IMG/VR virus record: IMGVR_UViG_2734482785_000008
Coordinates: 1-64,000 of that record
Origin: an uncultured virus (IMG/VR IMGVR_UViG_2734482785_000008)
Taxonomy: Duplodnaviria; Heunggongvirae; Uroviricota; Caudoviricetes
Strand: one strand, 5' to 3'
Length of the DNA: 64,000 nucleotides
This document shows, piece after piece, positions 54,846 through 56,584 of the stretch; the first letter of the stretch is position 1, and each line of letters starts with the position of its first letter. The notes under the pieces were generated by a model, which ran no database searches, was not told the origin of the DNA, and saw only the letters and a program-made list of their open reading frames with translations. A program made the position numbers and the translations under genes.

Positions 54846-54881
54846 TGGTTATCCCTCAATAAAAGTGACATATTTATTAGA

Positions 54882-55003
54882 TTGCGGTGCCGGGTTCCTC
54901 CCGGTGTCCTTTGGCTGGTTATCCACCGTGGACGTGGAAACAAGGAGAAATAATGGACAGATATAACCATTTCCCCGCGTGCGCTTAGCCGCATTCACCG
55001 CAA
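54882..55003 (-). ncRNA. tRNA/C4-like structured RNA unit
   Basis: TTGCGGTG...CACCGCAA closing stem, GAATGCGGCTAAGCGCA arm, CCGGG-AGGAA-CCCGG T-arm-like hairpin. Confidence 0.65.
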
Positions 55004-55076
55004 CGGAAAGAGCATTCTTGGTGGACCTGTAGATTGGGATATGAACCCGTTACAGGAGAATGCTCTTACCTGTTAC
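55000..55076 (-). ncRNA. Long-stem repeat unit A
   Basis: Plus strand CAACGGAAAGAGCATTCT...AGAATGCTCTTACCTGTT. Confidence 0.6.
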
Positions 55077-55165
55077 GTGCTCCGTTTCGTGGAGCTAACG
55101 GCGGGTGATCGGGCCGCACCAGACTGGACTTATTTCAGCGTTATGCTCATGCCAGAGAATCAAAC

Positions 55166-55263
55166 TGTGATGGTCGGTGCTGAACTCCGACACAGGGTTG
55201 TAGCAAGCCCCGCAAAGCGCGCACTACTGTAGTTGCGGCACATCAGCCTGTGCATTCACCACA
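55166..55263 (-). ncRNA. tRNA/C4-like structured RNA unit
   Basis: Minus strand TGTGGTGAATGCACAGGCTGATGTGC...GTCGGAGTTCAGCACCGACCATCACA. Confidence 0.65.
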
Positions 55264-55354
55264 ATGTTGAGAACACTGGTTGTCACGCTGCAACGCAACA
55301 TTTATTCGTAGATTGGGATATGACCCCGTTACGCCAGTGTTCTCAACGTTGTAG
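55260..55354 (-). ncRNA. Long-stem unit B
   Basis: ACAATGTTGAGAACACTGG...CCAGTGTTCTCAACGTTGT 19-bp stem. Confidence 0.6.
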
Positions 55355-55492
55355 TGCCGGTTACGGTTCCGGCCAGGCCTCTTCCTCAACGGGGTGTTCT
55401 CCATACGGACTACCGTTTATTGGTCGTTCCTGCGGTTTATGTTGTGAAGCCAGATGCTTATCTTCTGGTTGCTTCAAAGAGCTGCACTTCAT

Positions 55493-55560
55493 CACAACGG
55501 TAAGAGCACTCGATGCATTTAAGCCAAGCCCCATAAGGGAGAATGCCCTTACCTGTTGTG
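55493..55560 (-). ncRNA. Long-stem repeat unit C
   Basis: CACAACGGTAAGAGCACTC...GAATGCCCTTACCTGTTGTG. Confidence 0.6.
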
Positions 55561-55693
55561 TTGTGATGACCGGTGCTGATCTCCGGCTTGCGGTTATTTC
55601 AGACTCTCACGGGCGTTTAATTGCCCCGCCGAACAGCTCTTTTCCGCAATAGCTGCAATGTCTTTCGCGCATCAGCCTGCGCATTCATCACAA
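55561..55693 (-). ncRNA. tRNA/C4-like structured RNA unit
   Basis: Minus strand TTGTGATGAATGCGCAGGCTGATGCGC...GCCGGAGATCAGCACCGGTCATCACAA. Confidence 0.7.
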
Positions 55694-55775
55694 CGGTAAG
55701 GGTACTTCGTAGGGATTCGAACCCTCTGCCAAGCTCGGCGATCTCCGACGTCGCAAAATACCCTTACCTGTTGTG
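55689..55775 (-). ncRNA. Long-stem repeat unit D carrying a tRNA T-arm
   Basis: CACAACGGTAAGGGTA...TACCCTTACCTGTTGTG enclosing minus-strand AGGGTTCGAATCCCT. Confidence 0.6.
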
Positions 55776-55776
55776 C

Positions 55777-55852
55777 TGGTGCCGATTAACGGACTCGAAC
55801 CGCTGACATCCTGCTTACAAGGCAGGCGCTCTACCAACTGAGCTAAACCGGC
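55777..55852 (-). tRNA. trnT: tRNA-Thr (TGT)
   Basis: 76-nt cloverleaf, anticodon arm CCTGC-CTTGTAA-GCAGG, CCA end. Confidence 0.95.
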
Positions 55853-55854
55853 AT

Positions 55855-55930
55855 TGGCGATGGTGGATGGATTTGAACCATCGACCCGTTGATTAACAGT
55901 CAACCGCTCTAACCGCTGAGCTACACCATC
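55855..55930 (-). tRNA. trnA: tRNA-Asn (GTT)
   Basis: 76-nt cloverleaf, anticodon arm GTTGA-CTGTTAA-TCAAC, CCA end. Confidence 0.95.
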
Positions 55931-56133
55931 ACTTGCCGGGTACGTCTCCGGCGAGGGCTTCCACCTCCGTATGCTTTTCGGCGCACCGCGCCCTGGCTGC
56001 AATTCGGTAACAGGGGATGCACAACCCTGGCTTCCAGCGTGATTAGCGCCTTCAGCATGACGGGATATACCCGTAAATTCGTGGAACTGTACCCAAAGTG
56101 CTGTTAAGCACCGCTGTTACGCTGAAAAGAAAA

Positions 56134-56214
56134 CGCAACAGGAAAGGACGCTGACCAACAGATGGCCCCTTCTCGTTCATCTGGTTAATCACACCAGCGC
56201 CCTTACCTGTTGTG
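56134..56214 (-). ncRNA. Long-stem repeat unit E
   Basis: CGCAACAGGAAAGGACGCTG...CAGCGCCCTTACCTGTTGTG. Confidence 0.6.
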
Positions 56215-56584
56215 CCTCCCCGTTCCCTAATACACAGACGGGGACACTCTGCGGTCGATTTTTTGACGGGGGACGACTCATACCCCGTGGCATCTGGCTT
56301 CTTAGGCCGCTACCATCATCAGATCATCGTTTGCATTTACTTTAATGGTCAGTTTCTAAACCGCCGCAAAGTCGCTAACCATGACGAAAACCCTGAAAAA
56401 AACGCCCACCCGAAGATGGGCAAACTGGAAGCTCGTAACGCACTTCGGCGTTGCCACTTAGGCGCATGGTCAACCTGGCAACTCGGTGGTTTGTCTGGGA
56501 GGACTAGGCCCAGCCATGCTTACCGCCGCGCCTGTCGCGGCTAACAGCTAAATCGCTCTATAAATCACGATTCATTGAGGCGAT

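Follow-up and report, generated by a model that had tools for sequence, protein, structure and literature searches.

The leader of the C1-controlled ban operon of phage P1 as a predicted array of two structured RNA scaffold families with exchangeable inserts

A 64,000-nucleotide (nt) stretch of viral DNA (IMG/VR record IMGVR_UViG_2734482785_000008, positions 1 to 64,000; hereafter the window) was identified as phage P1, and the element of interest within it is the minus-strand leader between the C1 operator Oban (Op72) and tciA, behind a C1-controlled promoter. This leader carries members of two families of structured RNA, termed here T1 (stalk hairpins) and T2 (cloverleaf-like units), which are scaffolds common to many enterobacterial phages and loaded with different inserts, a 'scaffold plus cargo' reading that is well supported by sequence comparison. 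Our preferred explanation, to which we assign a probability of roughly 0.6, is that the leader is a C1-repressed RNA operon whose transcript is cut by ribonucleases (RNases) P, III and E into modules, the T2 units being trans-acting. In the direction of transcription the order is T1-0, a spacer, transfer RNA (tRNA)-Asn, tRNA-Thr, T1-A, T2-A, T1-B, a spacer, T1-C, T2-C, a spacer, T1-D, T2-D and tciA. Positions 54800-56650 are 99.6% identical over their whole length to P1 isolate OP279344, and match the P1 reference NC_005856 at 99.3% over 87% in two pieces.

Two scaffold families in the ban leader

Relatives of the leader were gathered from IMG/VR by the junction word CACAAC/GUUGUG, yielding 117 stretches from which 80 loci were taken. 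A covariance model (R1) built from 18 aligned hairpins, all from outside the window and chosen so to avoid circularity, returned exactly five T1 matches on the minus strand of the window at 31.1-55.6 bits, each with a weaker mirror match on the plus strand at 24.5-31.3 bits. All five hairpins fold far better than shuffled sequence (z-scores of -4.67 to -7.51, with 0 of 200 shuffles as good in each case), in agreement with an earlier reading made from the letters of the stretch alone (the sequence-only reading), which had noted five long stems whose flanks are conserved and whose interiors vary. The stalk begins with a base of CACAAC paired with GUUGUG, followed by a bulged A and about 13 further pairs, above which the interiors are unrelated; the stalk of T1-C has another sequence with identical pairing. 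Across an alignment of 24 sequences 96.5% of cells pair and 9 of the 19 modelled pairs have changed on both sides, a level reached by 0 of 500 shuffles and set against 35-51% paired in slid controls. G-U pairs are frequent in the stalk (for example, U-G in 15 of 24 sequences at one position), which together with the strand asymmetry argues for selection on an RNA rather than on a DNA palindrome. The 19 modelled pairs plus the bulge, at this degree of pairing, give the stalk the approximately two helical turns of an RNase III-type hairpin. In phage D6 a T1-model match of 41.1 bits was also observed far downstream of the array, past tciB and trnI (locus L004, 220-268), so that T1 hairpins are not limited to the leader.

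A second model (R2), built from 15 sequences from outside the window, detected three T2 units on the minus strand of the window and none on the plus strand. In the T2 design, 8-10 pairs form the closing stem; a linker of 3 nt leads to a small 5' hairpin (4-base-pair (bp) stem, 8-nt loop), followed by a variable interior of approximately 30-110 nt and by a 3' hairpin abutting the closing stem. A tRNA cloverleaf would have this topology if its anticodon arm were exchanged for cargo. In an alignment of 22 sequences 95.8% of cells pair and six pairs show double changes; again 0 of 500 shuffles reached this level, and slid controls gave 27-55%. About six tRNA-like units had been counted in the sequence-only reading, of which three can be maintained as T2 units, whereas 55355-55493 and 55931-56135 were not detected with R2 and fold like shuffles. 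Two further properties of the T2 units were considered. The first and last hairpin loops are complementary (GCUGAU with AUCAGC, 93.9% of cells pairing), resembling the D-loop/T-loop contact of tRNAs, but both double changes came from one sequence (L027) and the variant L253 is, as we read it, non-complementary, and loop-loop kissing is kept as a suggestion only. Folding of T2 gated by RNase III was rejected, the predicted probability of the closing stem being 0.89-1.0 both before and after the cut in the T1 stalk.

T2-A corresponds to the core of a published small RNA. sRNA-17 of Escherichia coli K1 RS218 is described as 193 nt long with ends mapped by 5' and 3' rapid amplification of cDNA ends, with phage mEp460 named as carrying a homologue (Sun et al. 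2020, PMC7719688). It was compared with P1 through mEp460 (locus L007) and through the paper's supplementary alignment rows, which match L007 2444-2636 by eye, one letter aside. The first base of the T2 closing stem is also the first of this interval, at whose far end lies a terminator. T2-A is identical at 133 of 135 positions to the first 135 nt of sRNA-17 (L007 2502-2636), the two differences together making one compensatory pair, and the 5' end of sRNA-17 falls exactly at the T1/T2 border. P1 does not have the last 58 nt, which hold the terminator hairpin, and continues with T1-B at that point. The accessible text reports no Rfam homologue of sRNA-17 and does not describe the cloverleaf scaffold (PMC7719688).

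T2-D matches the Rfam family STnc100 (RF02076) at 38 bits (E-value 5.6e-6), below the gathering score of 47, over model positions 31-147 of 206, and T2-A and T2-C have no match to this family at E<=1. Among the gathered relatives, all six loci of subtype ii (the T2-D type) match STnc100 below threshold at 25.6-40.8 bits, and none of the 10 loci of subtype i (the T2-A type) does so at E<=0.1. STnc100 and T2-D have in common an outer closing stem, a 5' hairpin and a 3' CCGGG-loop-CCCGG hairpin at the closing stem (cmscan alignment), and an independent fold of T2-D reproduces the STnc100 core architecture; T2-D is thus a weak, sub-threshold relative of STnc100. In the accessible text of a preprint, STnc100 is linked to the Hfq-associated prophage RNA PasD, which has Hfq targets by RNA interaction by ligation and sequencing (RIL-seq), and Pas RNAs are described as terminator-ended and not tandem (Zhu, Shabalina, Storz 2026 preprint). 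PasD itself may be a T2-like RNA, going by what those authors write in the accessible text.

Exchange of modules and inserts among phages and plasmids

The 80 loci yielded 47 different downstream (T2) and 48 different upstream (T1) versions, of which a minority are chance matches in coding DNA. Throughout this set the arms hardly vary and the interiors are unrelated. Exchange is also apparent among P1 isolates, which differ by whole modules, with the P1 reference lacking exactly T2-A plus T1-B, and within a single module: a contig from RNA run X7 differs over T2-D by approximately 30 substitutions and 7 small indels, all in the interior at 54893-54974, with matching flanks, which we interpret as a natural replacement of cargo within a kept scaffold. 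The idea of constant scaffolds with exchangeable cargo, already put forward in the sequence-only reading, is upheld by these observations together with the conservation and covariation of stalk and scaffold. Among P1-like relatives, the leaders of P7 and D6 carry a tRNA-Ser and those of Ro157c2YLVW and CMS-2020a a tRNA-Tyr, and that of SJ46 is without further units. Between T1 and T2 units of P1/D6-type leaders, extra cassettes of tRNA-Ser(UGA), tRNA-Tyr(GUA) and tRNA-Arg(UCU) were observed (Table 1).

Pieces of the array were recovered from at least 222 phage records, including 71 for Escherichia, 69 for Klebsiella and 42 for Salmonella, and almost all of them lie in unannotated DNA. At least 1027 plasmid records also contain such pieces, with 80% or more of the region covered in 414 of them. 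The mEp460 locus contains, in addition, an isrK match above threshold (67 bits) followed by a C4-antisense-RNA-like element of 44.2 bits that is cut by the locus end (L007 4980-5137); this segment adjoins a gene for a Rha antirepressor and resembles the immI region of P1.

Transfer RNA pieces at the T1 tips

Several of the variable T1 tips resemble parts of tRNAs. The tips of T1-C (55315-55327) and T1-D (55036-55048) are GGG-loop-CCC hairpins with NUCAUAU loops, similar to the anticodon arm of the initiator tRNA with its three G-C pairs and CAU loop. The 13-mer in T1-C is two mismatches from the anticodon arm of metZ, an E. coli initiator tRNA, and T1-D also gave a 13-mer match; the mEp460 relative reproduces this arm of metZ without a mismatch. 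The exact 13-mer has only four occurrences in the K-12 chromosome (reversed control, 0), three of them at metZ, metW and metV and the fourth at a site presumed to be metY, the remaining initiator tRNA gene. A scan of viral contigs gave at least 118 stretches; among the matches listed, the initiator arm is exact in 63 of 82 instances, and nearly all printed contexts place the arm at the tip of a long stalk of variable sequence. When the third stem pair was left free, it was G-C in 64 of 82, G-U in 9 and A-U in 2. T1-A ends in a tRNA T-arm-like hairpin on a 7-bp acceptor-like extension of the stalk, with scores far below threshold for tRNA-Sec (14.6 bits against a threshold of 47, the best tRNA-clan score of any T1) and for mascRNA (14.9 bits). 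A specific copy of a host T-arm was rejected for T1-A, the hairpin being generic with its nearest K-12 match at one mismatch in 16. Other tips have the look of complete but degenerate tRNAs and are not called by ARAGORN.

An ambitious interpretation of these tips, which we regard as doubtful, is that T1 is a natural display scaffold for host tRNA pieces and the array an RNA-based cassette system for counter-defence or host take-over. VapC-type toxins of enteric plasmids cut the initiator tRNA in its anticodon loop, and initiator-arm tips could act as decoys for, or competitive inhibitors of, nucleases of this specificity. Alternatively, they could bind factors that read the arm, such as the 30S peptidyl (P) site with initiation factor 3 (IF3), or methionyl-tRNA synthetase (MetRS). 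The T2 units would, under the same interpretation, carry exchangeable seed regions, and phages would trade RNA cargos in the manner of anti-defence genes. That the array could serve anti-defence or silencing had been suggested in the sequence-only reading.

The start of the leader and prophage Qin

The first part of the leader connects P1 with prophage Qin of E. coli K-12 (locus L130). The homologous segment (Table 1) overlaps the 'dicF-like region' annotated in P1, mapped here to window positions 56387-56488, and covers the stretch upstream of dicF, not dicF proper. The small-RNA body that occupies the position of DicF in P1 differs from it in sequence, and the DicF model (Rfam RF00039) has no match at E<=1 in 53500-57000. 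Qin itself contains a T1 hairpin upstream of dicF (L130 2174-2258, 35.4 bits with R1) and an STnc100-like T2 unit between dicF and dicB (L130 2456-2582, 28.7 bits with R2), the latter unannotated in the K-12 record. A genome-wide search of K-12 with R1 gave no match under stricter filters that miss the Qin copy, found at 35.4 bits in the small search. The 190-nt DicF species is described as having a 5' end made by RNase III and as being lost without this enzyme (Faubladier 1990, as cited). A 5' end 190 nt before the annotated 3' end of dicF would lie at approximately L130 2246, inside the 3' arm of the Qin T1 stalk, and by this count of positions the Qin T1 homologue would hold the RNase III cut that gives the 190-nt DicF.

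Feature map, spacers and coding potential

On the minus strand the order of genes is dmt (end 56603), Oban, approximately 1.7 kb without a protein gene, tciA, tciB, tciC, trnI and ban. The annotation of NC_005856 places the operator Obanab (formerly Op72a/b) and the promoters P1ban/P2ban at the leader start, a 'dicF-like region', tRNA-Asn and tRNA-Thr within the leader, and the open reading frames (ORFs) upl and plp on the opposite (plus) strand. Both halves of the double operator named in the sequence-only reading were recovered with the 17-base C1 consensus, at 56596-56612 on the minus strand with 0 mismatches and at 56585-56601 on the plus strand with 2, in a window that contains 15 C1-operator sites against 0.31 expected. 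Just 5' of the tciA start, 23 nt (54859-54881) repeat the operator region directly, with 74% identity to 56585-56607; this copy does not match the operator consensus within 3 mismatches.

Table 1. Features of the ban leader and its surroundings; positions refer to the window unless a locus (L) is given.
Feature	Position	Strand	Evidence
Bivalent C1 operator Oban (Op72a/b), overlapping P1ban/P2ban	56585..56612	-	consensus and NC_005856 annotation
Homologue of the prophage Qin sequence immediately 5' of dicF	56446..56540	-	78.6% identity over 98 nt, L130 2263-2359
Putative small-RNA body in the DicF position, with terminator-like hairpin 56403-56422 and U run (seven U)	56395..56436	-	terminator scan and position relative to Qin homology
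T1 hairpin 0	56133..56214	-	R1 31.1 bits, E 6e-7; fold z -4.67
tRNA-Asn(GUU)	55855..55930	-	ARAGORN; Rfam tRNA 74.5 bits
tRNA-Thr(UGU)	55777..55852	-	ARAGORN; Rfam tRNA 72.9 bits
T1 hairpin A	55688..55775	-	R1 52.8 bits; fold z -4.77
T2 unit A, core of published sRNA-17	55560..55693	-	R2 82.4 bits
T1 hairpin B	55492..55560	-	R1 55.6 bits; fold z -5.68
Unclassified spacer with CCGG-loop-CCGG hairpin at its end	55354..55491	-	no R2 match at E<=1; fold z -0.12 to -0.85
T1 hairpin C	55259..55353	-	R1 37.4 bits; fold z -7.06
T2 unit C	55164..55264	-	R2 68.2 bits
T1 hairpin D	54998..55077	-	R1 53.4 bits; fold z -7.51
T2 unit D, STnc100-like subtype	54881..55003	-	R2 26.1 bits; Rfam STnc100 38 bits; fold z -2.73
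tciA, TerB family, first protein gene past the leader	54411..54845	-	Pfam TerB 2e-14; phrog_632 1.9e-63; annotation
Varying tRNA cassettes	L003 (P7) 1509-1595; L004 (D6) 1514-1600; L006 2108-2194; L009; L083

The two tRNAs named in the sequence-only reading are present, and the only tRNA calls by ARAGORN and Rfam were 55777-55852, 55855-55930 and 54061-54136; no T1 or T2 unit was called a tRNA by ARAGORN or the Rfam tRNA model. The YrlA model (RF02553, threshold 69 bits) gave a single match of 25.6 bits on the two real tRNAs and none on T1 at E<=10, and identities as YrlA/Y RNA, transfer-messenger RNA or microRNA precursor were rejected as matches at chance level. The shared junction word is confirmed, with 8 occurrences of CACAAC and GTTGTG combined on the transcribed strand, where 300 shuffles gave 1.14 +/- 1.10 and never more than 6. 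The description of the region as tiled nearly end to end was overstated: modules and tRNAs cover approximately 905 of 1681 nt (54%, from summed coordinates), and the spacers fold no better than shuffles. The spacers 55355-55493 and 55931-56135 have only their terminal CCGG-loop-CCGG hairpin in common. The first spacer hairpin after T1-B (55435-55510) is closed by GUUGUGA/UCACAAC and is 81-86% identical by blastn to unannotated DNA of Sashavirus, PJ16 and P22-like Salmonella phages; judged from this sequence it may be a third type of module.

That the region is instead protein-coding, through upl, plp or a 57-residue minus-strand ORF annotated in OP279344, appears scarcely credible. The three ORFs are present (63, 139 and 57 residues, respectively), are annotated in some records, and upl matches phrog_14500. 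This is the only kind of match that upl has, and such PHROGs were presumably made from P1-type ORFs themselves; no Pfam family was found for any of the three and no PHROGs family for plp or the 57-residue ORF, and the DNA under upl is missing in P7, D6 and SJ46. Further, plp matches relatives only piecewise, with breaks at RNA-module borders in 5 of the 7 relatives compared, its C-terminus varies among P1 isolates through gain or loss of the T2-A plus T1-B block, and it overlaps tRNA-Thr in the P1 reference. The earlier statement that there is no credible ORF here agrees with the absence of a Pfam or PHROGs family for plp and the absence of the upl DNA from P7, D6 and SJ46.

Proposed expression and processing

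A tRNA within a longer transcript is released at its 5' end by RNase P and at its 3' end by RNase E and exonucleases. In the proposed model of the P1 leader as an RNA operon, lifting of C1 repression would allow transcription from Pban, producing first a small RNA in the DicF position that ends at a leaky terminator, and read-through would then produce the five T1 hairpins, three T2 units and two tRNAs ahead of tciABC-trnI-ban. RNase P would generate the 5' ends of the tRNAs and, probably, of the tRNA-shaped T2 units as well, in the latter presumably by a cut at the first base of the closing stem, as suggested by their tRNA-like shape and by the 5' end of sRNA-17; RNase III is predicted, by analogy, to cut inside the approximately 20-bp T1 stalks, with RNase E and exonucleases dealing with the remaining ends. 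The scaffold would provide folding, processing and stability, with the interior as exchangeable cargo, and whole modules would be swapped by recombination in the conserved arms. The T2 units would most likely be trans-acting regulatory small RNAs, like their published relatives sRNA-17 and PasD/STnc100, which are of this kind or associate with Hfq. The T1 units would keep the modules apart and may display tRNA fragments (the initiator anticodon arm and the T-arm), and their tips may have a function of their own.

With tRNAs embedded in the array, the transcript must be cut at least there. The claim of the sequence-only reading that one early transcript is cut at unit borders is to this extent indirectly supported, the need for tRNA excision being joined by the RNase III site in Qin and the 5' end of sRNA-17, which speak for homologues rather than for P1 itself. 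At least 86% of the words sampled from the region are present in each of 14 RNA runs. Contigs from RNA runs X1 and X7 break at 56614-56627, at Oban, with leader-side depths of 52 versus 23 and 37 versus 13; the break and the step in depth fit a transcript start but are not proof of one. The raw-read RNA runs X21 and X23 contained no P1 reads, and their 0 reads on the stretch do not bear on the model.

Several observations weigh against this model. The X1 and X7 contigs give neither ends nor strand, and library DNA is a possible source of them. Most transcripts could end at the terminator-like hairpin (56403-56422), short of the array, and nearly half of the region lies outside any module. On energy alone two of the T2 units fold like shuffles (z-scores of -1.72 and -0.77), and collecting relatives by the junction word favours conserved sequence in the 5' strand of T2 and in the 3' strand of T1. 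The 5' end of sRNA-17 was read by its authors as a transcription start at an ArcA-bound promoter rather than as a product of processing (PMC7719688). CRISPR interference (CRISPRi) directed at trnT, plp, upl, tciABC and ban is reported to give no plating defect, so that any function would be conditional.

Alternative explanations

A possible but rather unlikely alternative is that the modules act only in cis, by processing, insulating and stabilising the tRNAs and the tciABC-ban messenger RNA (mRNA), for instance through protection of 3' ends or attenuation, with interiors that are neutral filler. The Qin T1 homologue is a processing site, the region was scored non-essential by CRISPRi, and deletion of sRNA-17 is described as strongly raising expression of the downstream genes yfdP and yfdR, a cis effect (PMC7719688). 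Neutral filler, however, would not be expected to remain 98.5% identical in lambdoid phages and IME207, as T2-A does, nor would it preserve an exact initiator-arm tip in 63 of 82 of the listed instances, and PasD, the described STnc100 relative, is credited with Hfq RIL-seq targets in the accessible preprint text. A selfish or hitch-hiking mosaic, in which the arms are recombination 'boundary' sequences that spread cassettes without benefit to P1, would account for the breakpoints among relatives, which lie in the conserved arms or the shared tip, and for pieces in 222 phage and 1027 plasmid records; it seems very unlikely to us, as compensatory changes preserve the pairing of stalk and scaffold and model scores are strand-specific, with no plus-strand match for T2, from which selection on the RNA is indicated, not DNA homology alone.

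We consider it highly improbable that the modules are processive antitermination RNAs of the HK022 put type, which would make polymerase terminator-resistant on the way to ban. Such a role would suit their position directly behind repressor-controlled early promoters, both in P1 and in mEp460-type prophages that are without an N-like gene there, but the P1 modules lie downstream of the leader terminator, removal of sRNA-17 from the lambdoid leader raised rather than lowered downstream expression according to the accessible text, and in other phages the modules stand elsewhere, alone between terminators or beside tRNAs.

In P1, a textbook phage, the 1.7 kb behind one of its best-known operators are still annotated with two doubtful ORFs. 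The present analysis connects the DicF processing site, sRNA-17 and STnc100/PasD, which were published separately, as parts of a single modular system whose inserts are exchangeable. Should these inserts prove functional, above all the look-alike of the initiator tRNA, phages would have a new means of carrying and exchanging small RNAs with anti-host or anti-defence activity, and a natural scaffold competent for processing would become available for expressing designed RNAs in E. coli. Should they be mere processing spacers, the annotation of P1-type phage-plasmids would still be corrected.

Comparison with known systems

The literature examined gave no account of the P1 array, the T1 family, the common T2 scaffold or a phage mimic of the initiator arm. 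Apparently new are the two scaffold families, their alternating array, and the T1 tips that copy the anticodon arm of initiator tRNA. The suggestion that the array had not been described as a system holds for the whole but not for its components, three of which are in print or annotated, as sRNA-17, STnc100/PasD and the dicF-like region.

Several known arrangements are similar in part. The tRNA cluster of phage T4 includes the stable RNAs C and D, which are tRNA-shaped but non-decoding, are co-transcribed with tRNAs and are freed by host tRNA-processing enzymes; to our knowledge, that cluster differs from the P1 array in having no alternating design of stalk hairpins and cloverleafs and no family of exchangeable inserts. 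The tRNA-microRNA-encoding RNAs (TMERs) of murine gammaherpesvirus 68 are tandem pairs of a tRNA-like unit and a hairpin, in which the tRNA-like part is the processing handle. This likeness to the P1 array is accompanied by clear differences, as TMERs belong to a eukaryotic virus, are RNA polymerase III units each with its own promoter, contain microRNA-precursor hairpins and have no sequence relation to P1. In phage T7, conserved long hairpins that are RNase III sites punctuate a polycistronic transcript, as in the P1 array, and we know of no variable tRNA-like tips on them, nor of their being common across phage families, unlike T1.

The closest comparisons are with relatives of the modules themselves. 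sRNA-17 has its own terminator hairpin and is described in the accessible text as an ArcA-regulated primary transcript, whereas T2-A of P1 is without a terminator and lies between two T1 hairpins, so that its release would need processing. Prophage Qin resembles the P1 leader in being a repressor-controlled early operon with a T1-family hairpin, a leader segment that is 78.6% identical, a small RNA with a leaky terminator, and a T2 unit between dicF and dicB. Qin differs in having a single T1 and a single T2 without tRNAs, with protein genes lying upstream, whereas P1 places five T1 hairpins, three T2 units and two tRNAs directly behind the promoter, with another small-RNA body in place of DicF.

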